From: a virus
Lineage: Duplodnaviria; Caudoviricetes
DNA length: 64,000 nt
Direction: 5' to 3' (one strand)
Virus record (IMG/VR): IMGVR_UViG_3300022752_005266
Coordinates: 2,011 to 66,010 of that record
Under the pieces are notes generated by a model. It saw only the letters and a list, made by a program, of their open reading frames with translations. It made no database searches and was not told the DNA's origin. How positions within the stretch are numbered: the first letter of the stretch is position 1; each line of letters begins with the position of its first letter. The position numbers and the translations under genes are program-made. Of the stretch, positions 8,401 to 56,269 are shown piece by piece.

Positions 8401-11400
8401 TAGCAGGAGTCGGAGGCTTCGGGGCTTCTGCGCGAGCAAAGGCGGCTTGCCGGCGTTCAAACGCCGCAGCGGCTTCTTCGCTGTTCTCGCCGAACTTTCG
8501 GATCGCCTCCATCCAAGCAACGTCGGCGCGAAGGATGTCGGACATCGCGTCTGCGGGCGTCAGCGTGACCGGCGCCTCGACGAAGGCCGCCTTCGCGGCG
8601 TCGAGTCGCCGGCTGAGCGCGTCCATCTGCCGGTCGATGGCGTTCGCCTCGTCCAGGTCGTCGGTTTCGAGGGCGATGTCTCGCTCACTGCGAAGACGCT
8701 CCATCTCCGCCTCAAGCTTCGCGACGTCGGGCGTCGGAGCAACGGTCGGCGCGGGAGCCTTCGGCGGCTCGGGCGTCGGGATGGCGGCCGGCACCTTCGG
8801 GGCCTCGACGACCGCCTCGGCGGCCGGCGCGGCCTCGACCGCGGCGCGCTCCGCCTTCACCTCGGCGTGAACCTGCCTGACGTCCTTCGGGTCAAGCTTG
8901 AATCCGCCGAAGAGCGGCTTGATCTTCACGCCGGGGTTGGCGCGCAGGTACTCGCGCAGCTGCGCCTTCCGGCCCTCGACCGTGTCCGCCAGGACGGGGA
9001 GCACGCCGGGGGCCGGAGCAGTCGCCTTCGGCGGAGCCGCGGCCGTCGGAGCGGCCGCCGGGGTCGGCGGAGTCACGGCTGCGGGCGGAACCGCCGGAGG
9101 CGTCGCGGGCGCCGCCGGCTTGATCTCAGGAGCCTTGCGGATGGCCGGCTCGCCCTTGGCGACGCGAGCCTCCATCAGCTTCTCGGCTTCGGCGATGCCC
9201 TGCTCGAACGCAGCGCGCGTCGAGGTAGGCGGAAGGCTACGCGACCGCACCGGCGCGTCGCCGACACGGACGATGACGCGGAGCGGTCCGCCCTTCGTCG
9301 GCTCGTCCACGATGACGCGGGCGTCTCCGATGATGATGCCCTTTGCGACACCCGCGCCGTCGGCCGTTTCCTGGGAGAACTGCACGAGCGGCGTCGGCCG
9401 CGCCAGCGCTTCGTCAAAGAGCCTCCGCGCGTCCGCGGCCGATGCGATGTCCACCAGCGGCGTACCCACCGGGATCGGCGGCCGCATGCTGGCGAGACGC
9501 GCAGCGGCGCTCGATGCAGCCCTCGGCGTTACCGACGTCGCGGCGGCCGCAGCGGCAGGAACCGCGGCCGCAGGAGCCGCGGGGGCGGCCGGAGGAATCG
9601 GCACGCCACCGGCGCGCGCCAAGTCCTCAAGCGTGCCTCGCTCGACCCCGATGTCCCGGTAGACGTCGAACAGGTCACGCTTCTGGCGCGCCGCGACCCC
9701 CTTCGCCATGGCTTCGACGCCAGTCGCCGCCTGCACCAGATCTTCGAACTTCGCGTTCGGCAGAACCTGCCGCAGCTTGTAGAGGAACAGCGAGCCACCC
9801 GGGGAGAGGCGCACCGGCGCGCCGTCCGGCCCTCGTGCCACGACGTCGTCGAAGATGGCGACGGGCTGGACGTTGATCTTCGCTTGGTCCGCGATCTCGT
9901 CGCGGAGCAGCGCCGCAGCCAGCCCACGCGCCTCGTTGTTCTGCTCAACCGCGCGCAGCGCCCGGTCGAAGAGCGCCATGTCAGCAATCCGAATCTCGTC
10001 GATCGTCTTGCCCTTGACTCCGCTGAGCTTGCGCGCCAGCTGCGAGGGCAGCCGACTCTCGCCGGGCGTGTGCAGCGCCTGCCGCAGCGGCGCGTAGTAT
10101 TCCGTGCCGTACTTCGGGCTCGCCTTCAGGTCGGCCTGGAGCGCAGCCCGAAACGCCTTCTCGTCGGTGAGCGCCAACGGCGCGCGCTTCGCCACGATGT
10201 CGGCGAGCTCATTCACCTCGTCGGCGGAAATCGTCGGGAACTTGAACTCCTTGTCCTTCGCGAGGCGCGCCCTCGCGCGGTTCAGCACGTCGCGCGTAGC
10301 GCCACGGGCGTAGAACTCGGCGTACGCGTCGGTCGACTTCGGCGCGTTGGCGAGGTAGCTCGCCTTGGCCTCGGAGATGCGCTCCAGCTGACGCCGCGTG
10401 TTGTAGAGCTCCGAGTACGCGGTCATCGGAATGTCGCGCTTCTTGAGCTTCGCGCTGAGGATGTCCTTGCGCAACGAGGGGTGCAGCCACGTCCGCGATT
10501 CGGCCTCGCGCGCCACCTGCTGCGAGAAGTCGCCGGGCCCGCCACCGATCAGCGCAGCGAGGTCCTCGTTGTAGATGTCGCTCTCGGGGTCGTGCATCTT
10601 GATCGCACGCGCCGCCTCGGCGTCGAACCGGTCGAGGCTGTCTGCTGCGACGGGGAGCAGATTTCGGAGCTCCGCCTCGGCCTCAATCGCCTTCTCGTAC
10701 TGTCCTGCCTTGCGAGCCTCCGCGGCCACGCGCAGCAGCTCGGTCGCCTTCGGCGCAGCGACTTTGAACTTCGCCGTCCTCGCGGCGGCGCGGATGCCCT
10801 TGTACGCGACGTCTCCCGCAGCCAGCACATCCGGGAACGCCACCGAGGCCACGAACCCCGCGGCGACGACGGGCGCGCGGACGAACGCCGAGGAGCCCTC
10901 CGTCTCCTCCAGCGCGTAGTCCAGGAAGTTTGCGCCGGTCTGGACGCCCTGTGCCGCCGTTCCGCCTTCAAGCTTGCCGACGATGGCCGCCTGGGGAACG
11001 TCAATCGCGCGGAAGAGTACGCCGAGCGGCGACTCCTGGCGGAACACCGCCTGATTCTTGTTGTTGAACCCGATGAGCTCGATGTTCGGCTTCAGCGCGC
11101 CGAAGAAGCCGGGAGGCACACGCCCTTCCGTGACCTCGACATCCTGCATCGTGACCGCGGGCGTCCACTGCCCGACGGTCTTGTACGCCATAATCTCGTT
11201 GACGGCCTGCCGACGAATCTTCGCCATGCGCTCCGTCGCATCGGGTTGCGACACCGAGATGTTCGCGCGGCGCGCGAGCTCCTCTGTACGCTGCTGAATG
11301 TAGCGCTGCGTCGCACCCGTCTCGGACCGACGCCCGTAGAGGTCGTACAACTGGACGGCGTTCTTGTCCTTCTTCAGCCCCTGCACGAGCAGCGCGGCCA

Positions 11401-12205
11401 CGGTGTAGCCGTGCTCGCCCGGCTTCGAGACTTCAGGGAGCTCCGTGCTGGTCCCCGCGGCGAGGTAGCCTCGCGCGCCCAGGGCACCCGCGGCGGCGGC
11501 GCCGGCAGCCGCGCCCGCCGGCCCGCCCGCGAGCCCGCCCATCACGGCGCCAAGAGTCGCGCCGCCGGCAGCCCCGGACACGCCCTTGTCGGCGCCCGAC
11601 TGCACGATTTCAATCGTGTCGCTGGCGATGCCCTGCTGGGCCTTCTCGGCCGCGTCAACGATCTTCTTGAACGCCGCCGCGCGCTCGTTGACCGGCATGA
11701 AACCGAGCACGCCGCGCTCGCGGTTCGCCTGCGCGACCTCGTCGTAGCTGCGGCCCTTGCGCCGCGCCTCGTAGAGACTCTCCAGGTTGACGCCCTGCGC
11801 CTCGGCAACCTTGTTGATCTGCTCGAAGGGCAGCCCGGTGCGGAGCTTATACGCCGCAACCGCGCGGTTGAACGTCGGGCCCGTCGCGACATCAAAGAAC
11901 TGGCGGTAGTCGACGATGCGCTTCAGGTCAGGGGGCAGCTCAAACTTTTCAAGAGGAGGCGCCTTGACAGGCTCCGCGGCTTTGGTTACCGTAGGGCCAG
12001 GGGGCCGTGCGGTCTTCTTCTGCTTCGGAGCGGCAGGAGTCGTGGCGGCCGGAGCAGGTGCGGCGGGGGCCGGAGAAGGCGCGACCGGCGCGGGGGCCGC
12101 AGCGGCGGCTTCGGCCTGCTTCTTCTCGGCGGTCTGCTTCAGCTCACGCTCAAGGAAGAACTTCTGAGCGGCGAGTTGCTGGGCGGCATCGGGCTTCCCG
12201 GCCAT
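2480..12205 (-). CDS. giant polyvalent/internal virion protein (~3,240 aa) with two zincin-like metallopeptidase motifs
   Basis: AGGAGA RBS before MAGKPDA. Motifs THEILHH...SEFWA and VLHEAAH...EELFAKAFEQY; Pro/Ala linkers; C-terminal 'LYDYS...MFPFWAFQK' region resembling large ejected phage proteins. Confidence 0.8.
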   Translation of the reverse strand: MAGKPDAAQQLAAQKFFLERELKQTAEKKQAEAAAAAPAPVAPSPAPAAPAPAATTPAAPKQKKTARPPGPTVTKAAEPVKAPPLEKFELPPDLKRIVDYRQFFDVATGPTFNRAVAAYKLRTGLPFEQINKVAEAQGVNLESLYEARRKGRSYDEVAQANRERGVLGFMPVNERAAAFKKIVDAAEKAQQGIASDTIEIVQSGADKGVSGAAGGATLGAVMGGLAGGPAGAAAGAAAAGALGARGYLAAGTSTELPEVSKPGEHGYTVAALLVQGLKKDKNAVQLYDLYGRRSETGATQRYIQQRTEELARRANISVSQPDATERMAKIRRQAVNEIMAYKTVGQWTPAVTMQDVEVTEGRVPPGFFGALKPNIELIGFNNKNQAVFRQESPLGVLFRAIDVPQAAIVGKLEGGTAAQGVQTGANFLDYALEETEGSSAFVRAPVVAAGFVASVAFPDVLAAGDVAYKGIRAAARTAKFKVAAPKATELLRVAAEARKAGQYEKAIEAEAELRNLLPVAADSLDRFDAEAARAIKMHDPESDIYNEDLAALIGGGPGDFSQQVAREAESRTWLHPSLRKDILSAKLKKRDIPMTAYSELYNTRRQLERISEAKASYLANAPKSTDAYAEFYARGATRDVLNRARARLAKDKEFKFPTISADEVNELADIVAKRAPLALTDEKAFRAALQADLKASPKYGTEYYAPLRQALHTPGESRLPSQLARKLSGVKGKTIDEIRIADMALFDRALRAVEQNNEARGLAAALLRDEIADQAKINVQPVAIFDDVVARGPDGAPVRLSPGGSLFLYKLRQVLPNAKFEDLVQAATGVEAMAKGVAARQKRDLFDVYRDIGVERGTLEDLARAGGVPIPPAAPAAPAAAVPAAAAAATSVTPRAASSAAARLASMRPPIPVGTPLVDIASAADARRLFDEALARPTPLVQFSQETADGAGVAKGIIIGDARVIVDEPTKGGPLRVIVRVGDAPVRSRSLPPTSTRAAFEQGIAEAEKLMEARVAKGEPAIRKAPEIKPAAPATPPAVPPAAVTPPTPAAAPTAAAPPKATAPAPGVLPVLADTVEGRKAQLREYLRANPGVKIKPLFGGFKLDPKDVRQVHAEVKAERAAVEAAPAAEAVVEAPKVPAAIPTPEPPKAPAPTVAPTPDVAKLEAEMERLRSERDIALETDDLDEANAIDRQMDALSRRLDAAKAAFVEAPVTLTPADAMSDILRADVAWMEAIRKFGENSEEAAAAFERRQAAFARAEAPKPPTPAIAEPPTPTPITAAVEAPVEAAKPIPWYDTLESEQKKRLFAAMTGLDAEAQKEAARADKMTAPFGRVPVGAAGFDAWLKSYVKDAFLRGLRRGMTPDEAEVYAKAESRVAVAKHNEKRPTDVNWRRADITGDDTIERAKANILSKMEPSTPPASKAPIEVAVEAATEAPAVRVADADIDKSPEVKKAQKPRKVAENKLKIARGKQEDAQAAVDAAKTPAAKKKAAQALTKATEELRAAEVADEAAELEYQAARNVAEKRLAEEAGKQQPLPLGPRAEAPAPAPKAEAPKAEAPEVSRSISVKSEAFRVDMDRARRSRIADVMIARIMGVDTGHEYEDIPKTFRVSAQKRLRRAGEGLQAGKITEQEYFKLVAAITDDLDDQAQIRRARATQGPKRGTDWVRSRLLAARADGRLDDAGVELADWFLQQNPRLADELAISVRKGGEDSMTAGFYERASQLVVLIKDKGDELTATHEILHHTERMLPEAMQDAIRKEWRKQLTATLKTATPEQRPFLEKMLTGVDYKDVAEAFASGKLPIQYYQFLNPSEFWAVHASEIVAGRFAAFNKGLTAKAKQWLVEFVQKVKSVFGLKSDAPIIRGLDEVLAGNGTFVSKETLGARGKYLSVEPPQPSGIPEAAARQTEDPNILRQVGPTGQIKGTVRWAEDGRAVIALFDGADASTVLHEAAHIVRRNALDVKDMENITTWIRRSGVNVTHEFGEFVGSAADVERAEELFAKAFEQYVMEGVAPTPTLAEVFAHLKRVLVDIYKGVTDPVIGKPVAPEVKAVFDRLLQETEEQSFPSLKQVMRRELLGGPKEDIGFLRKLSEEAQRKGIPRTSVEDLMKQFDTAAAKKVADDKPYISFPVKVLGKQDWTASDLAEAQAELDKSRMTTAARKRGLKLNLAGKRLEQTGLIEEDTAVESLRSVLAKQGDETGMPAYLRTGLRSVAAAFFGGDVAREKGVRLMPPEMRKALDTSERVIENAIGDTVTLVNDALESGKSDALYRFLSGDPRVTRLGGRPITSGGHDFMESFRTMLRRTLESLPEEQQYALSRLADVLSQPKWTEHLTTIGYEGVDADGHLIPFAKATKEAAKVRDDLGKAIETLLHASGKAEDELGIGLAQAISSAVGAPNVARPPYEFKLVELLTYIAGKTGRGYDEKGAWKMFKGDSRNAVETFLGQAGEIYNEQAKRQLAVIIGGYGSADVAKRTLIKLDLGISEPAKMAFTSWITGEAWPAQYTEEIQRIIDRYGLNADFVADRILGVDYYIPKQARERMANALARVKYRPLEASTGGDAFNTLYRYMKTRMTRGSFFLRQRYFMANTVDHFIQSGMTYGWGIAANSVTRVIAQDLMVLPAWQQALELARKLPGGEQRIPRDVLERARRALQAKGDLFGNRIGQLFGAAKYRIEVNPILEGIDGSFRAGDKVYSFREIRNLAVEEGVFASFDTRQLSNVIQREGALFINTEMMRWKNVIEGEAALEKAGEGRVLRGKIQNFLADWQSTVSDTAEAWGERERLGAMVALMEAGYDPRTAARLTIDALYDYSQSMTKADRSILVGIMFPFWAFQKNANVQVFNNLFSPWGAYRMMCIRRARERSADLLTEVLYGAVGDEFGMDVESMPPNLQDSYYSIVTEFYNQYNGDPPDDAKHALRMLLLGRGRDVEEGRLYELSPELLRMREAGLFSDIQRLSRYAQAKPSKVSRVSYLRERAGFAVPFPKTEAVQVYQSLLGDDHSFMEMFWPESSIETGLRHITQMAATLIVASSQAPDLLSGGALTEGGAREVKVMRVIEPVFDPERSPILAPLLADMSTDAMPPKKLALGVSGAAEITQRAATVVHPLIGKMIDDMYGTTFLRVPADVDPFIVDETGQNLKQLPPEEIERIRKLQAEYPDAGVLRDQRYYVRGGVWSMAFENTPLLGELNALLLRWEREPMERTNLRGQILRVCRAALGIDVSMTSPQRTVKYEEPTKLRETKGM

Positions 12206-12304
12206 CGTGTCTCCTGGGGTCGGGGCAGCCAGAACGCGGCTGCGCCCGCACCGCATCGTAGCATGTTGACGAAGCGGTTGCAGGCGCGAGGATGTAGGAA
12301 CTGA

Positions 12305-33567: not shown

Positions 33568-34104
33568 ATGGCTGCATATGGTTGGATCACTCGTAAGTTC
33601 ATTCGTTACGGCGAAGTCATCACGGAGCACCTCGCTACTTCGTCCGTCACCTCGGCGAAGCTCGCCTCGGGTGCGGTCGGTGCGACCGCCATCGCCAGCG
33701 GCTCGATCGCGGGCGCGAAGATCGCGAACGTGGCGACCGCCACGGGCGCCGGTACTCCGACGGCGGTGACGCCGGGTGTCCCGGTTGTCGTGGCGCTCAA
33801 CATCACGGACGCGGGGTCCTCCGCGGTTTTCGACTTCACCATGCCGTTCAAGTGCAAGGTGATCGACGCGTACATCATTCAGGTGGGCGCGGGTAACGCC
33901 GGTAACGCGGTCGTCATCAAGAACGCCGCAGGGACCGCCATCTCCAGCAGCATGAACAACGCTGCGGACAAGGCCCTCACGCGCACCACGAGCATCGACA
34001 CGGCGAACAGCACCATCGCTGCCGCTGCGGTGCTGAAGGTGGACGTGACGCGTGTTGCCGGCGCCAACGTGAACGTGTACGTCACGGTCATTCCGATCGC
34101 CTAA
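33568..34104 (+). CDS. putative virion/decoration protein
   Basis: GGAGG RBS; 'SSVTSAKLASGAV...GSIAGAKIA' repeats; has its own promoter and terminator. Confidence 0.65.
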   Translation: MAAYGWITRKFIRYGEVITEHLATSSVTSAKLASGAVGATAIASGSIAGAKIANVATATGAGTPTAVTPGVPVVVALNITDAGSSAVFDFTMPFKCKVIDAYIIQVGAGNAGNAVVIKNAAGTAISSSMNNAADKALTRTTSIDTANSTIAAAAVLKVDVTRVAGANVNVYVTVIPIA

Positions 34105-34118
34105 ACGGCGATGCGGTG

Positions 34119-34160
34119 AGGCCTGCCGGGGTTTCGTGCCTCGGCAGGCCTTCTTTCCTT
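34119..34160 (+). terminator. intrinsic terminator
   Basis: AGGCCTGCCG...CGGCAGGCCT followed by TCTTTCCTT. Confidence 0.7.
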
Positions 34161-35064
34161 AGCTGTTGGCCCACTTCGTCGGGACGACGTGCCCCGGACC
34201 CCACGGCGTGGTCTGGACGGCGATGCGACGGCCGCTCTTGTCGGCCCCTGGGAAGGCCGCGAGGTCCTGAAGACGCTTCTCGGGGCACCAATAGAAGTAA
34301 ATCGGGGTGCCATCGACCATTCCCCAGTACCGGAACCAGCCATTTTGGCTGTAATAGTCGTGCAGAACCGCCTCCGGGACCGGGATCTTGTCGCTCGGGC
34401 TGCATTTCGTCCAGCCTTCGGGCGTTTCGTACACGTCGGCGTCCGGATCGGGCGTCGGAATGACGTCTTCGGGGCCCGGATCGGCCGATTTCGCCGCGAT
34501 TTCGGGCTTTCCGGCGCCGTTTTTGGTCGAATGCGCCCGCTGAAGCGCGTCCAGACCCCGGATCAAGGCCATCCGACCCACCGTTTCCGCCGAAACTTCG
34601 ACGCCCAGCTCCTTGACATGCGGGAGCGCCTTGATAGTAGGAATAAGCGCCTCGATCTGTGCCTGAATATCTGGTTCGAGCGTGAGCACGAGCATGCTCT
34701 TGGCGGCCGGCCCGCTCTTTGTGACGGTCCAACCGCGCACATCGGCCAGTTTCGCCGGCTCGGGCGGCGCGATGGGCAGGTTCCAGCGCGACGTTTCGTC
34801 CAGTTCGACGCGCGACGATGCCTTCTCGGGCAAAGAATGGGTGGCCTGCGCGTCAGCGCGGGCCGCCCATTCTTTGAGCTGGCTCATGCCGGTGGGCCCG
34901 ACGCCCGGAATCGCGGAACCCCGCGCACTCGTGGTTGCAGAGGGGGGTGCGTCAGCGCCCCCCTCTCCGGCCAGGAGCGCGTGGATGTCGGTGTCGGTCG
35001 TGATTCCCGCGTTCAGCAGGGAGTTGCGGAGTCGTAAGGGCAAGGGCAGATCGCGGACGTGCAT
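34159..35064 (-). CDS. protein with an N-terminal RNA polymerase alpha-CTD-like (HhH) domain
   Basis: 'VRDLPLPLRLRNSLLNAGITT...IPGVGPTGMSQLKE' matches the alpha-CTD pattern; GGAGG RBS. Confidence 0.6.
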   Translation of the reverse strand: MHVRDLPLPLRLRNSLLNAGITTDTDIHALLAGEGGADAPPSATTSARGSAIPGVGPTGMSQLKEWAARADAQATHSLPEKASSRVELDETSRWNLPIAPPEPAKLADVRGWTVTKSGPAAKSMLVLTLEPDIQAQIEALIPTIKALPHVKELGVEVSAETVGRMALIRGLDALQRAHSTKNGAGKPEIAAKSADPGPEDVIPTPDPDADVYETPEGWTKCSPSDKIPVPEAVLHDYYSQNGWFRYWGMVDGTPIYFYWCPEKRLQDLAAFPGADKSGRRIAVQTTPWGPGHVVPTKWANS

Positions 35065-35615
35065 GGGACCTCCGCGGCGACCATAACGCGGTGGTATGGT
35101 GATTGGCGAGAATCGTGGCGATATTTCTGGGAAAGTGGCGTGGGTCCCTCAACCGTAGCGGTATGGGTGGGGGGATTTTTGCGTGCGTCAGAAAGAGCGC
35201 TCCCAGAATGGGGTCCCCATTGTGTTTCCGGCGGGTGTGGTGCCTTGCCTCGATGTTGTTGTTGATTCGGCGTTGTCTCTTCGACAACGCTGTCTGCCCC
35301 GCGAGGCTCCGGCGGTCGGGGCAGCCGAGGGCGGCTGCCGCGGTGGGGTGGGCGGGCGGACGGCGGCGGGCGGTCCGTCCCAGCGCGGCGCCGCGGCGGA
35401 GGAGCGCTCGGCGCGGCGGGCCGTCGTGGTCCGTCGTGCCCGCCAACCGGCGGGGAGGAGCGGCGGCTCACCGGGCGACCGTCACGGCCCGCCGGTTCCC
35501 CCGCGACTCCCGCCGCGGCTGCGCCGCAGCGCTCCCCGCGGGGTCAGGGTAGACGCCGCGGCGGCGGAGCGGCGGCGCGCCCCGTGCCCTTGACGGCGGA
35601 TCGCGCGTAGCCGCA

Positions 35616-35690
35616 CTGGGAAGCGCTACAGGACACGTCAACCACGGGGGTATACCTACCCCTTGCCTACCCCGTCCGCGTGCCTTCCAG
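35616..35690. repeat. 75-bp element, copy A
   Basis: CTGGGAAGCG...TATACCTACCCC...TGCCTTCCAG; aligns without gaps to 39190-39264. Confidence 0.6.
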
Positions 35691-35760
35691 CGTGTTTTGC
35701 AGGTTCAAGGCCGATTCTTCGAGGCGCCGATCTCGAGGTGGGGGCGCCGCGGCGTGGAGC

Positions 35761-35789
35761 TTGACGGGTCGACCGCCCCGGTATAGCTT
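35761..35789 (+). promoter_or_regulatory. early sigma70 promoter
   Basis: TTGACG-17-TAGCTT; near copy at 37815. Confidence 0.7.
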
Positions 35790-35846
35790 GACGGTGCGGG
35801 GTCCGATCCCCCGCTGTTCCCTCACTCAAGCAACGGAGTCTCCACC

Positions 35847-36197
35847 ATGGCCACCGCTTCCTTTCATCCCCTCTCGTTCGCCGATGACACCCTGTGGGAC
35901 GCCGCGGAGAAGCTCGCCGAGCGTGCGGACGCGGCCGATCGCGCCGCGCGGCGCTGCGAGGACCGCGCGCGGTCGATCGCGGGCGCCGATCCGCGCGGAA
36001 CGGACGACGCGGCCGAATGGCTCGCCGCGGCCCGGGAGCACACGCGCGCCGCGGCCCTGTACCTCGACGCCGCGGCCCTGTTCCGCGAGAACGGCCACCC
36101 GTGCCTCGGTGGGAACCACGCCGCATGCGCGGAGGAGTCGCTCCGCGACGCGGCCCGCGCCGCCGGGGTCCACGCGTCACTGACAACCACGCGGTAG
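35847..36197 (+). CDS. early hypothetical protein
   Basis: GGAGTC RBS; 116 aa. Confidence 0.65.
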   Translation: MATASFHPLSFADDTLWDAAEKLAERADAADRAARRCEDRARSIAGADPRGTDDAAEWLAAAREHTRAAALYLDAAALFRENGHPCLGGNHAACAEESLRDAARAAGVHASLTTTR

Positions 36198-36300
36198 CCG
36201 CCCCGCATCCCCCCGCGAGGGGGGATGCCGCTCCGAGCCCCGTACCGCGGGGCTCCGACCGGCATCCCGCCGGAACCCAAGCAACGGAGTCTCAATCATG
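36198..36300 (+). repeat. ~102-bp structured intergenic repeat, copy 1
   Basis: Identical to 36741-36842 apart from one extra C; runs from a stop codon to the next ATG. Confidence 0.95.
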
Positions 36301-36510
36301 CCTGCTGCCACCCCCACCACGATCATCGCGTGGGATCCTGAATGGGAGGAGTACACCGTCAAGCGCGGCCGCGCGTCGCACCATACCGACGCGTACGACG
36401 ACGCGGTGCAAACCGCGGCCGTCATGGCCAACGGCGGCGCGATCGTCGACCGCGTGCCGAAGGCGCGCCGGCGCCTCCCGGCATGGCTCGCGGTCGGAGG
36501 TGCGAAGTGA
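36298..36510 (+). CDS. early hypothetical protein
   Basis: RBS and ATG supplied by the repeat; 70 aa. Confidence 0.65.
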   Translation: MPAATPTTIIAWDPEWEEYTVKRGRASHHTDAYDDAVQTAAVMANGGAIVDRVPKARRRLPAWLAVGGAK

Positions 36511-36740
36511 CCGCGGTCGACCCGTCGCACGTCGACGCGTGTCTCAACTACGCCCGCCGCGCGGAGCGGGATGCGCGCAACTACGATCGGCGCGCCGCGC
36601 ACTTCGCGGCGATCGACCCCGACGCCTACGCCGACCTGATCGCGTGGCGCCGCGACGGCGCCCGGTATCACCGCCGGTGGGCGGGCTTTTGGCGCCGGTG
36701 GGCGCGCACCGGGCGCCAACCCCGCCTACCGGTCGAGTAA
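36507..36740 (+). CDS. early hypothetical protein
   Basis: GGAGG RBS, GTGA overlap; MTAVDPSHV... Confidence 0.6.
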   Translation: MTAVDPSHVDACLNYARRAERDARNYDRRAAHFAAIDPDAYADLIAWRRDGARYHRRWAGFWRRWARTGRQPRLPVE

Positions 36741-36842
36741 CCGCCCGCATCCCCCCGCGAGGGGGGATGCCGCTCCGAGCCCCGTACCGCGGGGCTCCGA
36801 CCGGCATCCCGCCGGAACCCAAGCAACGGAGTCTCAATCATG
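36741..36842 (+). repeat. ~102-bp structured intergenic repeat, copy 2
   Basis: Direct repeat of 36198-36300. Confidence 0.95.
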
Positions 36843-37175
36843 CGTTCCCCTGACAACCGCCGCCGCGAGATCGCGCGGTTCCCGATCCCCGGCACCGACG
36901 TGGTGACCGTCGTGACCGTGTCCTACCCCTCGATCAACGGACTGCGCCGCGTCTACTCGGTAAGCGCGCAGCCTACGACGTTCGAGTCGTGGGATCACGG
37001 CACGATCGCCCGCTACGTCCCGTCGGAAGGCTACCGGACGGTGATCGGAGAGGCGCCGCGCTACTCGGCGCGCACGCTCGACACCTACGCGGCGGACCCG
37101 GAAGTGCTCGCGATCGGGCGGCGCATGCACGCGCGGATCCTCGCGGACCGCGGGATCGTCGGAGGTGCGGAGTGA
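36840..37175 (+). CDS. early hypothetical protein
   Basis: RBS and ATG supplied by the repeat; 111 aa. Confidence 0.65.
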   Translation: MRSPDNRRREIARFPIPGTDVVTVVTVSYPSINGLRRVYSVSAQPTTFESWDHGTIARYVPSEGYRTVIGEAPRYSARTLDTYAADPEVLAIGRRMHARILADRGIVGGAE

Positions 37176-37444
37176 CCGCGCGCCCGGTGCGGATCGACAC
37201 CGACGCGCGGAGCGGGAAGCGCTCCGCCGTAGCGGCCGCGTGGCGCCGGATCGAAGCGCTCCGCGTCCGCGGCTACACCGTCGACGCGGACGGGCGGTGG
37301 ACCTACGTTGCGATCGACGACTGGATCGGCGCGCGCAACGGCTACCCGTGGCGCCGTCAACCGGTTGACGGCCCGGTCGATCACGCGCGTGAGATGGCGC
37401 TATGCCGGTACGTCGCGATCGGCGGACACTTTCCGCCCGTGTAG
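37172..37444 (+). CDS. early hypothetical protein
   Basis: GGAGG RBS, GTGA overlap; MTARPVRID... Confidence 0.6.
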   Translation: MTARPVRIDTDARSGKRSAVAAAWRRIEALRVRGYTVDADGRWTYVAIDDWIGARNGYPWRRQPVDGPVDHAREMALCRYVAIGGHFPPV

Positions 37445-37559
37445 CGCTCCGCCCCGCTCCGCCCGCCTTGACGGCCCGCCCGGTAACCCCGCGGCGGGCC
37501 GTTCGCGTTGGGGCGCCGCGGCCCCGTAGCGCGCGCCGGCGGGGCCGCGCGCAGCGCGC

Positions 37560-37801
37560 TCCGTGTCCGGCGGTCCGGCGGCGCCTCCCTTGTGTCCGGG
37601 GTCCGGGGAAGGGGTACGGGTCCGGCGGGCCGGCGGCGCGTCCGGTGTCCGGCCGGCGGGGCCTCCCTGCGTCACGCGTCCGGCGGACCGGCGGACCGGG
37701 CGACCGGCGGACCGGCGGACCGGACCGGGCGACCGGCGGACCGGCGGACCGGACCGGCGGACCGGACCGGCGCCGCCCGGGCGAACCGGGCCGGCGGACC
37801 G
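37560..37801. repeat. degenerate GTCCGG / GGACCGGC short tandem repeats
   Basis: More than 20 CCGG-centred units in non-coding DNA. Confidence 0.8.
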
Positions 37802-37814
37802 ATCGCGAGCGCGC

Positions 37815-37843
37815 TTGACGGTCGAACCGCGCCGGTATAGCTT
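37815..37843 (+). promoter_or_regulatory. early sigma70 promoter
   Basis: TTGACG-17-TAGCTT. Confidence 0.7.
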
Positions 37844-37882
37844 GACCATGCCGGTATCCTTTCCCGGCGCAACGGAGTCTGA

Positions 37883-38698
37883 ATGTCCCTCTCGATCGCG
37901 GCCCTTCCTTCGGGCTATGTCCTCTACCGCGGCCCCTCTCGCTTCACCGGTGAGCCGATCGTCATCGTCGCGACCGGTATCAAGCGCAAGTCTGGCAACG
38001 TAAAGACGGGCTATCTGGTCCAGACGTGGATCCTTCCGATCGGCGCGGACGGCGCCGCTATCCTCCCGCACGTCGCGGTCCGGACCGGCGCCGCGCGTTG
38101 CGTATGCGGGCGCTGCCCGCTCCTCGGGAACGGCTGCTATGTGCGGCTCGACACCGCGCCGCGTGCCGTTGCGGACGCGTTCAACCGCGGCCGGTACCCG
38201 GACGCGTCGCCCGAAACGGTCGGCGCGATCGTCGCGGCGCACGTGCGCGCCGGCCGGATCGACGGCTTCCGGATCGGATCGTGGGGTGACGGCGCCGCGG
38301 CGCCGGCGGATACCTGGGCTCCGATCGTGTCCGCGGTCCGCGCCGCGGGTGGGGTGACGCCCGGCTACACGCATGCATGGACGGAGCGCTACGCTACGCG
38401 GCCGGAAGCGGTCGCGAGCGCGGACGCCTACGGCTTCCTCATGGCAAGCGCGCACGGCCCCGCGGATCGGCTCCGGGCGCGCGCCGCCGGCTTCCGGGCG
38501 TTTACGCTCCTCGCGAAGGAAGAGCGTGTTCCCGGCGCGTTCCTGTGCCCCGCGACCGAGGAAACGGACTACCGTAAGACGTGCGGCGCGTGCGGCGCGT
38601 GCGACGGAAAGCGCGGCGCCGACGACCGGCGCGCCGACCCGGTGATCGTCGTGCACGGTGCCGCTTCGAAGCGTGCCGCCGCTACCCTGACCGCCTAA
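37883..38698 (+). CDS. Cys-rich phage protein, GP88-like (possible Fe-S, degenerate radical-SAM-like)
   Basis: 'NVKTG', 'CGRCP...CY', 'RIGSWGD', 'GYTH', 'CPA', 'CGACGAC', 'HG'. Confidence 0.6.
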   Translation: MSLSIAALPSGYVLYRGPSRFTGEPIVIVATGIKRKSGNVKTGYLVQTWILPIGADGAAILPHVAVRTGAARCVCGRCPLLGNGCYVRLDTAPRAVADAFNRGRYPDASPETVGAIVAAHVRAGRIDGFRIGSWGDGAAAPADTWAPIVSAVRAAGGVTPGYTHAWTERYATRPEAVASADAYGFLMASAHGPADRLRARAAGFRAFTLLAKEERVPGAFLCPATEETDYRKTCGACGACDGKRGADDRRADPVIVVHGAASKRAAATLTA

Positions 38699-38723
38699 CT
38701 GACTAAACCACGGAGGTATTCCT

Positions 38724-39038
38724 ATGTCCCCTTTCCAGAAGACCACGATCGAGATCGTCACCGTCGACGGCCGCGAACCCGTCCCCGGCTACACCGTCCG
38801 CGCCTGCCCGGCGATCGCCGTCACCCGGCGCGCGGCGAACCACCCGTGGACCCTCACCCACGTCCCGACCGGCCGGACGATGTCCCGCACGTTCCCGAAG
38901 CTCGGCGACGCCAAGCGGACCGCGGCCGCCGTCGCGGAGCTCCTTGCCGGGGTCGACCTGACGACCGACGACCCGGCGGAGGTGGCCGGCCGGATCATGG
39001 CCGTTCCCGGGGCCCGGGCCGCGCTTTTCTACCGGTAG
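38724..39038 (+). CDS. early hypothetical protein
   Basis: GGAGG RBS; 'WTLTHVPTG' motif. Confidence 0.65.
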   Translation: MSPFQKTTIEIVTVDGREPVPGYTVRACPAIAVTRRAANHPWTLTHVPTGRTMSRTFPKLGDAKRTAAAVAELLAGVDLTTDDPAEVAGRIMAVPGARAALFYR

Positions 39039-39047
39039 GCCGGAACC

Positions 39048-39085
39048 CCGTATCGTTACGGAGCCTACGCTCCGTAACGATACGG
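39048..39085. repeat. perfect 17-bp inverted repeat
   Basis: CCGTATCGTTACGGAGC-CTAC-GCTCCGTAACGATACGG. Confidence 0.9.
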
Positions 39086-39189
39086 ACCGGCGCGCGCACC
39101 GTCGCCTTCCGTTCTTTCTGACCTGTCAACGCTCCGACGCGCCTCCGGCCCGCTTTCCCGCGGTCCGGGGGCGTTCGCGTTTAGGCGCG

Positions 39190-39264
39190 CTGGGAAGCGA
39201 TATGAGCCGTCCGGCCGGCGACCCTATGCCTACCCCCTACCGGCCCCCCTGCCTTGCCTTACAG
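39190..39264. repeat. 75-bp element, copy B
   Basis: CTGGGAAGCG...TATGCCTACCCC...TGCCTTACAG. Confidence 0.6.
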
Positions 39265-40096
39265 CGCGTCCGGCGGGCCTTCCTGCGCGTCCGGCGGGCG
39301 CCTACCCCGGCGTCCGGCGGCCCGGCGTCCGGCTATCCGGGCCGGCGGGTTGCCCTTCCGGGCGCGCCTCCGGCGGAAGTCCGGTTCGAACGCCGACTTT
39401 CCGGGATGCCGGCGGGCCGGCGGTCGAACCGGCGCCACGAAGCCGCGGACCGCCTCCCGGCGGGCGTCCGGCTTTCCCGGCGTTCGACCGGCGAAAGTTG
39501 CGATCGGCATACTGAACATCTGTGGTGTCAAATATTGAGCATTTCGCGAAAAACCCAGGTTAAACGCCGGTTATTCCTGACCCCGGGGAGGGTACCTTCT
39601 CGACCGTAACGCAAACGGCTAACGATCTTCAGCACATACAGACCCCGGTAGTACTCCGATCTACTTTGTCGTTCCCCTACCACGATCCTCTCCTCGCTCT
39701 GATCCCGTGGGGCCTATTCGCGTTTTTCGCGTCAAGTAGACCCCCCTGCGGACAGGTGTAACGCTCTGACCCCCTCTACAATGCCGACGGGGACGGCATC
39801 GTAGCGTTACGTCCCTTGTAACGCCGATTATTCCGCAGCCCTTCGGCGGATTATCGGCGTTCGTTCGTTCGGGATTCAGCGGTTCGGCGATTGTCCCCGT
39901 GTAACGTCAACAATCGCCGAGCCGTCGGGGTGGTCGGCGATAACGCAGGCTCGAGGCGGACAATCTCGAGGTTGACGGGTGGCCGAACGGAAAGATGCAG
40001 AATCTTACCGCTAAGGGTTGACGGGTGGCGGGGCGCCGCGGTAGTACTCTCTCACCGGCAGCCAGTGAGGCGGCCGGCTTCACCCACGGAGTCAAC

Positions 40097-53392: not shown

Positions 53393-56230
53393 TCAAGCTT
53401 CCTTGAGGTTCCTTCCGACGCTCGCCTCAGCGGTCAGCGGGACTTCCCAGCCAGGAACGCGCACGGTCATGCACTCCTCGACCTGCTTCCGGTACGCCTC
53501 CAGCTCGGCCGGTAGGGCCTCGCCCTTCTTCGGCTTCCAGCTCGCCAGTCCCGGCGGCGCCTCGATCTCGATGGCGATGGAGTCGTGGCACTGGTGGATG
53601 AGGCCCGTCCGCTTGCCGAGGTTCCACGGGAACGCATGAATGAGCGTCTGCTCGGCGAGCCGCATGATGCTCGTCTCGGCGGCGAGGATGGGGAAGTTGA
53701 CCACCTCGTTCTTCTTGCCGTCGGAGAGGCCACCCGAGCGGCGACCGAGCACCGGCTCCTCCATGAAGCCCTGATGCCGATACACCGACAGCATTGTCTC
53801 CCAGGCCGTCATCCACTCCGGCTCGTTCTTGAGCCACGTCTCGTGGAAGTGACGCACCTCCTTCGAGGTCATGTGCAGGTACGGCATCTCGCCGTTGTCC
53901 GACTCGGTCGACGTGAGCACCTGCCAGACCGTCAGCGGGTCTGCCCAGTAGATTGAGGCGTAGCGGAACGTCTTCATGACGTCGCGCATCGCCTTCGCCA
54001 TGCCGCCGTTCGGCTTCTTGTAGAGGCTGAAGCCGTCCGTCCCCCAGCCGTCGGCGCTCTTGAACTTGTCGCCGAACACCTGATACGCGAGCGTGTTGTG
54101 CGGGTCCTTCCCCTCGCTGAAGCATTCGAGCAGGAGCGGGATGCGCCAGTAGTTCGCCGTGATGCGAAGGTGCGCTTGGTCGAGGTCGGCGCCGACGAGC
54201 AGGTGCCCCGGCTCCGCGGCGAAGAGCGTCTTGAGCTTGCCCTGCCCCTTGCGGCTGCCGATGTTCTGGAGGTTCGGGCCGGACGATGACAGCCGGCCCG
54301 GCGCTGTGACGTGAGCGTTCCAGGTGGAGCGCACCCGCCCGTCCGCATGCCAGATGACGCCCTTCTTCGGGTCGTGCGCGGCGAGGTTCAACGGGAGCAG
54401 CACGGTGCCCAGGATCTTGTTCTTCTCGCGCCGGTACAGGCGAAGCTCGCGGATGAACGCTTCCTGATCGGGGGATAGCCGGCCGCCTGCGAGGTGGCCG
54501 CGCAGCACCTTGTCGCCGGTGCCGGGCATCCCGGACATCGTGTAGAAGTCGCGCGCCTCCATGTTCGGCGGGATGCCGAGCTTCCACTCTTCGTAGAGCA
54601 GGTCGCGGATCTGATCGGCGCTGCCGGGCGCGATGCCCGCCGTCTCGCCGTCGCCCTCGTCGTTCGCGCCCGCGCTCTTAAGGTCGAGCTTTCCGACGCC
54701 CGCCGCTACGGCGAGCTCCGACAGCCGCTTCTCTCGCTTCACGACCGAGGCCCGCGTCTCCATCTCCATCTGGAAGCGCGCCTCCTGGTCGACGTAGACG
54801 CCAATCTTGTGGAGGTTGACGCACATGTCCTGCGTCGCGTGGTCGACCTCGTGCAGGTCCCAGCGACGGCTTTCCCAGCCCACCGGGCGCAGCGCCTCGG
54901 GCAGGTCCCGGAACGCACCGGCTATCTCCGCCGCGTCCATCAGCGGCACCACGATGCGCGCGTTGACCGCCGAGTCGGTGCAGTTGTACGCGAGCCGGTC
55001 CCAGTCGTCGACGTTGCCGAAGGCGAGGCTCTCGCCCTTCTCCGTCGTCTCCCAGCGGTCGACGTCGGTGAGCACCGAGCCCACGACCTTCAGCCCCTTC
55101 GGAAGCTCCGGCGCCCGGAACCGCGCTGCGAAGAGCGTGTCGATGATCGGCATCGGTGTGACGCCGAGCCACTGCTCGACGACCTGCCGGTCGTAGTACC
55201 CGGCGTTGTGCCCGACCTTCACCTTCGACGTGTCGAGGAAGAAGTGGCGCAGGATGTCGAGGATGCGCGCCTCGTCGGCGGCGTCGTAGTACCGCGTGAA
55301 CCCGTCGCCGCTCAGGATGTTGAGCCCCATCACCTCGCAGCGCGTCGCTTCCTCTTGGCCGGGCCGCAGCGCGCGCCCCGCGGCGTTGAGGTCCGGGTGC
55401 GCGATGGCGATGGAGCGCACCGCGCACACCAGCGACTCGATGCCGTCCGTCTCCAAGTCGTAGGCCCAGAAGGGCGCGGGCCGCGCCAGGAACGCTTCCA
55501 GCTCGTCCGGCGTCGGGTTGAAGGTACGGACCGGCTCGGTCCATCGAAGCGCCCCAGAGAACCAGCGGAGGGCCTTCCCGAGGTCCGCATGTAGGACGTG
55601 GCGCCAACCCGGCGAGCGCTGCACGAAGCTCGGATGCAGGATGGGGAACACCTTGCGCACCGCGCCGTCGGGGATCGCCTCGCCCGCGAGCGGCGTCTCC
55701 AGCAGCGCGCCATAGCTCTCGTTCACCCAGACCGGCCCGCCCCGCAGCGAGAAGATGGACTGTGCCTTGCCGGTGAGCGAGTTGGCCGCGACTCGGCCCA
55801 TCGCAACGATGTTCTCGTAGCGGTCGGCTTCAGCCAGTAGACGGGGCCTACAGCATGTGATAGGGTCCGGGATGCCGGGCAGGCCCTGCGCGAGAAGGCG
55901 CCGGTTCTCCTTGTCGAGCGACTTGTTGAGCTTCTCCCAGGCGTTCTGCTGCGTGCCGGCCGAGCATGCGACGACGTGCGTGAGGTCGATGTCGGTGCGC
56001 TTGAAGCCGACGGCGAGGAGCGCGTTGTTCCACTCGGCGCCGGACCGACCGGAGAGGGGCCGCCCGTTGTTGGCGTCCTCGACGTGCGGCATCTCGGCGA
56101 CGGCGAGGATGGTCGCGCCGGCGTGCTTCTCCGGCGGGACGGGCTGCCAGTGACCGTCGCGATACTCGCCCTTCGGGCCGAGGGGACACTCGTTGCAGCG
56201 GGCGCCGCAGGTGCGGGGATCGTAGCTCAT
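53393..56230 (-). CDS. polA: family A DNA polymerase with N-terminal UDG family-4-like domain and 3'-5' exonuclease
   Basis: UDG-like 'CNECPL...AEMP...GRPLSGRSG...HPS'; exonuclease 'DLET', 'HNAGYYD', 'YNCTD'; polymerase 'GRLSSSGPNLQNI' plus motifs A, B and C. Confidence 0.9.
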   Translation of the reverse strand: MSYDPRTCGARCNECPLGPKGEYRDGHWQPVPPEKHAGATILAVAEMPHVEDANNGRPLSGRSGAEWNNALLAVGFKRTDIDLTHVVACSAGTQQNAWEKLNKSLDKENRRLLAQGLPGIPDPITCCRPRLLAEADRYENIVAMGRVAANSLTGKAQSIFSLRGGPVWVNESYGALLETPLAGEAIPDGAVRKVFPILHPSFVQRSPGWRHVLHADLGKALRWFSGALRWTEPVRTFNPTPDELEAFLARPAPFWAYDLETDGIESLVCAVRSIAIAHPDLNAAGRALRPGQEEATRCEVMGLNILSGDGFTRYYDAADEARILDILRHFFLDTSKVKVGHNAGYYDRQVVEQWLGVTPMPIIDTLFAARFRAPELPKGLKVVGSVLTDVDRWETTEKGESLAFGNVDDWDRLAYNCTDSAVNARIVVPLMDAAEIAGAFRDLPEALRPVGWESRRWDLHEVDHATQDMCVNLHKIGVYVDQEARFQMEMETRASVVKREKRLSELAVAAGVGKLDLKSAGANDEGDGETAGIAPGSADQIRDLLYEEWKLGIPPNMEARDFYTMSGMPGTGDKVLRGHLAGGRLSPDQEAFIRELRLYRREKNKILGTVLLPLNLAAHDPKKGVIWHADGRVRSTWNAHVTAPGRLSSSGPNLQNIGSRKGQGKLKTLFAAEPGHLLVGADLDQAHLRITANYWRIPLLLECFSEGKDPHNTLAYQVFGDKFKSADGWGTDGFSLYKKPNGGMAKAMRDVMKTFRYASIYWADPLTVWQVLTSTESDNGEMPYLHMTSKEVRHFHETWLKNEPEWMTAWETMLSVYRHQGFMEEPVLGRRSGGLSDGKKNEVVNFPILAAETSIMRLAEQTLIHAFPWNLGKRTGLIHQCHDSIAIEIEAPPGLASWKPKKGEALPAELEAYRKQVEECMTVRVPGWEVPLTAEASVGRNLKEA

Positions 56231-56269
56231 ACTCCGGGCGTAACTTGACGCCGTGGTATGCGCCAGCCG

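Follow-up and report, generated by a model that had tools for sequence, protein, structure and literature searches.

A repeated linker in a phage operon

The DNA analysed here is a 64-kb stretch of an uncultivated tailed phage (hereafter the window), which comprises bases 2011–66010 of the 66-kb IMG/VR virus record IMGVR_UViG_3300022752_005266. It contains a presumed operon of five small genes that is interrupted twice by a linker of about 100 nt, termed R, in the order g1, R1, g2 and g3, R2, g4 and g5 (Table 1). The same pattern of one gene, two genes and two genes separated by R had been proposed in a first-pass annotation of this DNA. Each copy spans the interval from the stop codon of one gene to the Shine–Dalgarno (SD) sequence and ATG of the next. 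Positions 36202–36301 are identical to positions 36744–36843 (100/100 nt), and the copies lie 542 nt apart. The likeness extends from the stop codons (TAG, 36195–36197; TAA, 36738–36740) to the sequence ATGC with a single 1-nt indel in a run of C, so that R1 and R2 agree in 105 of 108 aligned columns. The annotation's statements on a repeat of about 102 bp running from stop codon to ribosome-binding site and ATG thus all hold in the window. The tail motif GCAACGGAGTCT occurs four times in the 64 kb, each time 5–6 nt before an ATG (35847, 36298, 36840 and 37883), a count reached in 0 of 100 shuffles; its presence before the ATGs at 35847 and 37883, outside R, had also been noted correctly.

The metagenome runs that contain the stretch are labelled as lake or other freshwater, and four of them (X1, X2, X3 and X9) were compared with it. 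Run X1 contains 0.96 of the sampled words, and outside the tail of R1 its unitigs show no difference from the window. One X1 unitig (36244–36773) has an R1 tail with 3 nt inserted after 36273 and four substitutions between 36274 and 36294, at a depth of 17.3 of 17.3, and the window version of this tail (36274–36297) is supported by no X1 contig. Because the X1 unitigs carry a different R1 tail, the exact repeat may be restricted to a 72-nt core (36202–36273), and the identity of R1 and R2 over the last ~27 nt may be a choice of assembly path or a strain variant. As the unitigs are interrupted at the repeat, none of them spans R1–R2 and none reveals a 542-bp deletion; joints whose sides measure at most 30 nt at 85% likeness did not count as evidence by themselves. 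Between 35500 and 38000, unitig depths, which are rough figures, amount to ~17–18 over g1-R1-g2-g3, ~33 over g4-g5 and ~59 over the 72-nt core. These differences suggest co-existing strains with a common g4–g5 but different upstream cassettes.

Distribution of R in related phages

A homologue of g6, the gene that follows the operon, with 83% identity led to the IMG/VR contig L004, in which two diverged copies of R lie between different genes. A search pattern was built from the two conserved arms of R, which it therefore fixes. The pattern matched 30 metagenome contigs, eight of which are true homologues by context (L012, L014, L017, L020, L027, which is the same as L004, L030, L031 and L034); the remaining 22 matched by chance and were excluded from all counts. 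In IMG/VR the pattern retrieved only the contig already found, an exact search with the first hairpin (HP1) gave 0 matches, and a profile of the g4 family revealed no relative. No copy of R was found in 185,579 species genomes, where all 25 pattern matches are due to chance, with neither HP1 nor a setting before an SD sequence.

A covariance model, built from nine copies and followed by a final alignment of 11, recovered every copy together with one missed by the pattern (L017:1054-1162, 100.6 bits). Outside R, its best score in the 64-kb window has an E value of 0.0049, and its only other weak matches are operon leaders, which have the tail in common. The final set comprises 11 distinct copies in seven sources, the window and six metagenome contigs, L027 and L034 being left out as duplicates of L014 and L020. 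All copies lie between a stop codon and an SD sequence with ATG, in the orientation of the genes and in a promoter-proximal operon. The register is fixed: the stop codon is followed by 7–8 nt, HP1, HP2, HP3, a C/A-rich spacer, the SD sequence, 6–8 nt and the ATG. The copies have no conserved reading frame and differ by 1-nt indels.

Table 1. Positions of R and of the features around it in the window
Feature	Position	Strand	Description
P1, putative promoter box	35759–35800	+	TTGACG at 35761–35766, then TATAGC after 15 nt or TAGCTT after 17 nt
Operon leader	35796–35846	+	Small hairpin 35796–35814, C/A-rich spacer, SD box GCAACGGAGTCT at 35830–35841 as in R
g1	35847–36197	+	116 aa; no known family; seen in none of the relatives retrieved
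R1, linker copy 1	36198–36297	+	HP1 36205–36228, HP2 36232–36258, HP3 36259–36273, C/A-rich spacer, SD GGAG 36286–36289, ATG 36298; covariance model 107.1 bits, E 6e-36
Alternative long hairpin (S2) in R1	36219–36271	+	3′ arm of HP1 pairs with 36260–36271 and stacks under HP2; 24 positions, three 1×1 mismatches
g2	36298–36510	+	70 aa; AWDPEWEEY family; in relatives first gene or coupled via overlap junction
Overlap junction GGAGGTGCGAAGTGA	36496–36510	+	SD for g3, GTG start overlapping TGA stop; encodes C-terminal VGGAK
g3	36507–36740	+	77 aa; GTG start
R2, linker copy 2	36741–36839	+	HP1 36747–36770, HP2 36774–36800, HP3 36801–36815, SD 36828–36831, ATG 36840; covariance model 102.5 bits, E 2.8e-34
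g4	36840–37175	+	111 aa; DNRRRE family
g5	37172–37444	+	90 aa; GTG start overlapping g4 stop (junction 37161–37175)
Terminator-like hairpin closing the operon, then GTTCGCGTT	37470–37509	+	−33.5 kcal/mol; G/T-rich tail; putative function
P2, promoter-like box with leader hairpin and SD box	37813–37882	+	SD box 37869–37880; precedes g6 (37883–38698)

Three conserved hairpins and an alternative fold

The structure of R was assessed with RNAalifold and by counting pairs over the 11 copies. Of 282 cells, 96.1% pair in the three-hairpin fold (40–54% for slid partners), and 9 of the 26 pairs show both-sided (compensatory) changes. The covariation score of 0.297, against 0.140 in shuffles, was reached by 0 of 500 shuffles; these figures derive from few lineages, and the shuffle control should not be read as a probability. 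HP1 forms a G/C clamp of 10–12 bp, with 97% of cells paired and two of its 10 counted pairs changed on both sides. HP2 has 12 pairs, of which seven show both-sided changes with 94% of cells paired, and exists in five unrelated sequence versions, all of which fold. HP3 is a 5-bp hairpin with an invariant AUCCC loop; four of its pairs are invariant, and the fifth, as read from the alignment, is C-G in six copies and G-C in five. The two hairpins of the first-pass annotation are both present in the window, the first at 36205–36228 (10 bp, loop GCGA) and the second at 36235–36255, as is the complementarity on which it had based a second fold (36222–36230 with 36260–36268).

In that second fold the 3′ arm of HP1 pairs with CGGCAUCCC, and a long hairpin (S2) of 53 nt results, with a predicted energy of −44.3 kcal/mol (z −5.8); equivalents can form in 11/11 copies. 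The alternative pairing is possible in all copies (95.9% of cells), with compensatory changes in 0 of 11 pairs; its 3′ side is invariant, but is fixed by the search pattern in 10 of the 11 copies. The best fold with S2 differs from the best with the three hairpins (S1) by −5.3 to +3.1 kcal/mol across the 11 copies, and in three of them HP1 and the alternative are about even at equilibrium. A terminating ribosome at a stop codon covers 13 nt downstream. When the first 13 nt from the stop codon are blocked in the calculation, the probability of the alternative pairing rises from 0.00–0.54 to 0.50–0.99 in all 11 copies. The predicted accessibility of the SD sequence and AUG changes little between the folds, in directions that differ among copies. 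Masking of the SD sequence was accordingly rejected as a conserved read-out of a switch, the shifts being small and inconsistent and the pairing partners of the SD sequence differing between the two sequence groups. Of the RNA switch with two exclusive folds that had been suggested, the near-isoenergetic folds are borne out; the alternative pairing shows no compensatory change, and the switch itself is hypothetical.

Shuffled cassettes on either side of R

The first-pass annotation had proposed a search of related phages for the repeat with different intervening genes, and R was indeed found in such settings. With gene families defined by all-against-all BLASTP, the architectures are g1–R–g2.g3–R–g4.g5 in the window, gX.g2.g3–R–g4.g5 in L012, gY.g2–R–g4.g5 in L020, g2″, gY.g2–R–g4 in L034, g2...–R–g4 in L031, gA–R–gB–R–gC.gD.gE in L014 and L027, gA–R–gF–R–g4 in L030, and gF–R–gB–R–g4.g5′ in L017. 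Three partner swaps across R are evident: gA is joined to gB in L014 and L027 and to gF in L030; gF is joined to gB in L017 and to g4 in L030; and gB is followed by either gC or g4. R is retained where both flanking genes are replaced, and g4 is the commonest gene downstream of it (7/9 sources, the window and eight contigs). The proposal of a structured element at boundaries where cassettes are exchanged is thus upheld, with hairpins kept through compensatory changes and flanking genes that differ.

Between the window and L012, R is 96% identical and the surrounding 1.5 kb 88%. The HP2 versions are tied to neither neighbouring gene, and R itself is therefore mosaic. In L031 the leader directly precedes the g2 homologue, and g1 plus the R core is absent from that place; relative to this contig, g1 with the R core looks like an insertion between two copies of a 26-nt tail repeat. 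The two R copies of one genome are only 60/109 to 77/110 identical (55–70%) in the relatives. The near-identity of the window copies is therefore exceptional, and points to recent duplication or conversion or, for the tail, to a choice made in assembly. The alanine-rich protein of gB, which lies between two R copies, is 95 aa long in L014 but 61 aa in L027, a polymorphism in the length of an internal repeat between contigs that are otherwise near-identical.

Other features of the operon and of the window

The 42-nt P1 box recurs at 37813–37854 with 81% identity and is kept upstream of the first gene in relatives. The P1 and P2 boxes upstream of g1 and g6 probably act as promoters. R has no promoter boxes, and the TTGACG...TATAGC box of the phage itself is absent from it. 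No T-run follows any R hairpin, HP1 being followed by CGCUCCGAG. A promoter and terminator scan of 35000–39500 gave 0 promoter-like and 0 terminator-like sites. The hairpin at 37470–37509 fails the T-run criterion of that scan; over 37469–37504 it is 97% identical in L014 and L027 despite different flanks and preceding genes. A search of 34000–40000 against Rfam at E ≤ 1 returned three weak matches, all of them outside R.

The leader and R are alike in their order of hairpin, spacer and SD sequence, and their tails are 88% identical. The hairpin motif of the leader is conserved at 12 loci, all in the window or its relatives, and at 0 of 48 other loci. Counterparts of the hairpin at 35796–35814 were seen in L004, L012, L014, L017, L020, L030 and L031, and in L012 and L031 it consists of GGGG, a 7-nt loop of the TTCGATC type and CCCC, which we take to resemble a tRNA T-arm. 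A reading of this hairpin as an integrase attachment site (attP) was rejected, as no integrase was found among the open reading frames (ORFs) scanned. The window contains no tRNA gene.

A second conserved connector, GGAGGTGCGnnGTGA, combines an SD sequence, a GTG start and a TGA stop, and within it the GTG starts of g3 and g5 overlap the preceding TGA. It lies at 36496–36510 and 37161–37175 in the window and also occurs in L012, L014, L020 and L027; two matches, the number in the window, were reached in 1 of 100 shuffles. The junction gives unrelated proteins the C-terminal end VGGA(K/E/R). In L012 and L020 it couples a g2 homologue to a different upstream gene, in the place of R. Each promoter-like box is closely preceded by a long tract of G+C-rich degenerate repeats with a period of 8 nt (CGGCGGAC/CGGACCGG type), at ~35350–35600 and 37560–37810, and likewise at 3600–3780 and 5640–5900 in L004; these tracts could be arrays of binding sites, or origin or terminal sequences.

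A Pfam scan of nine cassette proteins gave no match. In PHROGs, the five cassette proteins of the window matched only families of unknown function, for g2 (E 2.1e-5) and g3 (E 0.0022), the other three giving nothing, and the ESM Atlas held no usable match for g4. The 'anti-defence' label given to these cassettes in the first-pass annotation finds no backing in the Pfam and PHROGs results.

The window has a G+C content of 63–74%. Its identifiable genes encode a P22-like portal, a family A DNA polymerase with a uracil-DNA-glycosylase (UDG) domain, a DUF927 primase-helicase, an SNF2-type helicase and a PD-(D/E)XK nuclease. The polymerase is encoded by a 958-aa ORF on the minus strand (53393–56269), with the UDG-superfamily domain at its N-terminus. 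A 3274-aa ORF, also on the minus strand (2480–12304), matches only PHROG 9880 (function unknown, E 5.6e-15), has no Pfam family and has no relative in the PDB except for a weak SlyB-like stretch; a giant virion or ejection protein is one possibility. On the same results for this ORF, the idea of a virion RNA polymerase with N4-like hairpin promoters was rejected. Against the phage isolate databases, blastn with 35600–38100 and tblastn with the portal gave no match, and tblastn with g6 gave only distant homologues (≤44% identity). No cultured phage is close to the window, and neither a cultured relative nor a host can be named.

Interpretation of R

R is very probably a real, conserved and structured element that marks cassette boundaries. 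The role that we favour for it, to which we give about an even chance of being right, is the processing or stabilization of mRNA combined with the provision of a standard translation start. R would be a promoterless module, transcribed between the cistrons of the promoter-proximal ('early') operon as part of one mRNA, that starts 7–8 nt after the stop codon of one cassette and ends in the SD sequence and ATG of the next. HP1 and HP2 would form a 3′ barrier on the polycistronic mRNA; alternatively, R refolded into the 24-pair hairpin could serve as the site of a double-strand nuclease of the RNase III type. HP3 and the tail, which copy the 5′ leader of the operon, would provide every cassette with the same protected and autonomous translation start. 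The R modules and the leader tail would be the sole sequence common to otherwise unrelated cassettes, and homologous recombination there could insert, delete and swap cassettes, as a consequence of the arrangement or as a second function. A function in mRNA is argued from the fixed register and the single orientation. The more specific reading as mRNA punctuation is drawn from the 3′ part, which mirrors the leader, from the 5′ part, which consists of stable hairpins after the stop codon, and from the ability of the whole to refold into an irregular helix of two turns, a type of substrate that RNase III enzymes cleave with protective 3′ hairpins left behind (PMC1540722).

Several points weigh against this proposal. 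No RNA run is listed for the sequence (35700–37900), so that transcription, RNA ends and cleavage are predictions; the P1 and P2 boxes taken as promoters fail the sigma-70 consensus criteria of the promoter scan. At equilibrium the three-hairpin fold prevails in 8 of the 11 copies (HP1 ≥ 0.94), and none of its helices is long enough for RNase III. Certain positions of the recognition boxes are antideterminants for the E. coli enzyme when occupied by G-C pairs (PMC1540722). The helices of R are almost entirely G-C, and cleavage is for this reason not a given. No nuclease can be named. The copies represent few independent lineages (two main sequence groups, eight contigs), and 10 of the 11 come from a pattern that fixes two arms. 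The sense strand is not favoured by folding energy, the reverse complement being on average 2.6 kcal/mol better, and the structure taken by itself remains compatible with a role at the DNA level.

Such a role would make R a palindromic recombination site or a small mobile repeat, akin to attC, to REP or MITE elements or to a promoterless variant of the promoter/early stem-loops (PeSLs) of T4-type phages, whose hairpins act in single-stranded or cruciform DNA for cassette exchange. The cassettes that differ on both sides of R, the mosaic character of R itself, the strong imperfect palindrome of 53 nt and a minus strand that folds at least as well agree with this idea, and PeSLs too run from stop codon to SD sequence and ATG, often with polyG/polyC stems (PMC2839356). 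Against it stand the orientation and register relative to stop codon, SD sequence and ATG, which are fixed in 11/11 copies, and the absence of GTT, and hence of an attC R′ core, from every copy. No integrase or recombinase was found in Pfam among the 33 window ORFs scanned, a subset of the ORFs, the species genomes contain no copy, and repeats that are 55–70% identical within a genome are a poor substrate for frequent exchange. We consider a DNA-level element quite unlikely. A transcription signal, that is, a terminator or attenuator without a U-tract after each cassette or a put-like RNA that renders RNA polymerase resistant to terminators, appears highly improbable, even though a strong G/C hairpin 7–8 nt after a stop codon occupies the usual place of a terminator and the 1:2/2:3/3:4 topology resembles that of attenuators. 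Besides the missing T-run and terminator-like sites, HP3 (3:4) has only 5 bp, and the operon ends in a terminator-like hairpin of another kind, followed by a G/T-rich tail. With efficient termination the downstream cassettes, which lack promoters, would be silenced. The presence of two copies in an operon does not correspond to the put arrangement, and no Rfam family was detected in R at E ≤ 1.

A translation-sensing switch, which we judge unlikely, would make direct use of the alternative fold: a terminating ribosome opens the base of HP1, the released 3′ arm pairs with CGGCAUCCC, HP3 dissolves and the long hairpin forms, so that the translation or fate of the next cassette depends on translation of the previous one. 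The mutually exclusive folds lie within the narrow energy range given above in 11/11 copies despite five HP2 sequences, and the blocking calculation shifts every copy towards the alternative. The distance from stop codon to HP1 is constant, the upstream stop lying 9–11 nt before HP1, and both one-sided changes in the shared arm still pair with both partners through G-U. Against these observations, none of the 11 pairs shows a compensatory change, and the invariant 3′ partner can be explained by the HP3 loop or by the search pattern; the barely shifted SD and AUG accessibility offers no consistent read-out; and the likeness of the 5′ arm to the D segment is enough by itself to produce near-equal energies. 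That the bistability of R is used as a switch at all is likewise doubtful. Rather improbable is the fuller picture, in which R, as a bistable RNA, senses whether the cassette before it is translated: a ribosome that terminates there would flip the three hairpins into the two-turn hairpin, the sole form to be cut or bound, the mRNA fate of early cassettes would be set individually, and the modules would serve as integrase-free exchange points that reshuffle host-takeover genes in freshwater phages. R could also be an operator at which a phage or host protein that binds RNA sequence-specifically represses or activates translation, with the invariant CGGCAUCCCGCC of HP3 and the SD box as its recognition sites, similar to a suggestion made for the start-associated sequences (SAS) of Cluster K mycobacteriophages. 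HP3 and its loop are invariant in 11/11 copies, including the pattern-independent L017:1054-1162, and the SD box is common to four genes of the genome; SAS and extended SAS (ESAS) are likewise start-linked repeats with upstream inverted repeats and of unknown function (PMC3203893). The search pattern accounts in part for the invariance of HP3, no candidate for the binding protein emerged, the cassette proteins having no family in Pfam or PHROGs that would point to one, and the tail differs between copies in the relatives. An operator of this kind seems distinctly improbable.

Comparison with known systems

The favoured reading of R as an mRNA punctuation module can be set beside several described elements. 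An intrinsic terminator combines a G/C-rich hairpin with a U-tract, which R does not have. The put element of HK022 is a two-stem RNA that lies just downstream of an early promoter, one per operon, and acts on RNA polymerase. R follows genes and not a promoter, occurs in up to two copies per operon and has no Rfam match at E ≤ 1, where the presence of a put model is unconfirmed; with no U-tract and no terminator-like site, the put-like antiterminator or terminator of the first-pass annotation is not supported. Like R, integron attC sites are imperfect palindromes that follow promoterless cassettes of variable content, at their 3′ end and in a single orientation. The attC core sites R″ (RYYYAAC) and R′ (GTTRRRY) have no counterpart in R, from which GTT is absent in 11/11 copies, no integrase was found among the 33 ORFs scanned, and R, unlike attC, includes the SD sequence and start of the next gene; the suggested attC likeness is not supported.

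The SAS/ESAS of Cluster K consist of a 13-bp box located 3–8 bp upstream of many starts, half of them with 17-bp inverted repeats further upstream (PMC3203893). As in R, a genome-specific box stands at a subset of starts, together with an upstream imperfect inverted repeat, a variable spacer and a suspected link to translation initiation (PMC3203893). The same account places SAS/ESAS at a dozen or more genes across the genome with 17-bp repeats of conserved sequence, whereas R occurs in one or two copies in one operon. Sequence, copy number (four boxes, two of them with hairpins) and architecture all differ from those of SAS/ESAS (PMC3203893), and the resemblance is functional only. R further differs from SAS/ESAS in having three hairpins, the middle one conserved only in structure.

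In phage T7, the RNase III sites R0.3, R0.5, R1, R1.1 and R1.3 lie between the cistrons of an early operon transcribed by the host polymerase. The T7 sites and R are alike as repeated intercistronic hairpins of ~50–60 nt in an early operon next to promoters. Substrates of the T7 type form an irregular helix of about two turns with internal mismatches, and cleavage leaves a protective 3′ hairpin (PMC1540722). The segment 36219–36271 provides such an intercistronic helix of ~20 bp or more, but as a minor fold at equilibrium in 8 of the 11 copies. No sequence or Rfam relation to the T7 sites was found, and cleavage of R is suggested only by analogy. R also differs in that its helices are very rich in G/C, that a small invariant hairpin stands apart from them, and that an additional 5′ arm competes to form the lower stem.

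PeSLs share more of the layout. Like R, they extend from the stop codon of a small early gene to the next SD sequence and ATG, contain a stem-loop with polyC/polyG tracts and are repeated between non-essential small ORFs whose content varies among relatives (PMC2839356, PMC4122927). The class is defined by a strong sigma-70 promoter and a terminator. No internal sigma-70-like promoter was found in R (0 sites in 35000–39500), and membership in the PeSL class, with which the first-pass annotation had compared the repeat, is for this reason not supported; stable stem-loops are present, but with no T-run and 0 terminator-like sites. Insertions, deletions and replacements bounded by the element are observed for R, in three locus pairs and in the absence of g1 and the R core from L031, with copies in one relative genome that are only 55–70% identical. 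A literature search, with supplementary files not covered, found no described equivalent of R; the supplements of PMC3203893 and PMC2839356 may detail the structures of ESAS and PeSLs.

The early regions of phages hold fast-changing small genes directed at the host, and how these are exchanged and yet remain expressible is understood for few model phages, through the T7 RNase III sites and the T4 PeSLs. R would represent a third solution, from a podovirus-like lineage of high G+C that is uncultivated and not related to these phages: a promoterless linker, conserved in structure, which carries a translation start with it and sits where the cassettes of relatives diverge. Its covariance model provides a defined RNA motif for metagenome searches, and its bistable structure is testable by simple reporters; if a switch were true, R would be a rare cis-acting RNA of a phage operon that senses ribosome termination. 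As none of the classes compared accounts fully for R, it is not assigned to any of them. By analogy, R appears close to the T4 PeSLs in layout and consequence, minus the promoter, and close to the early RNase III sites of T7 in its likely role in RNA.

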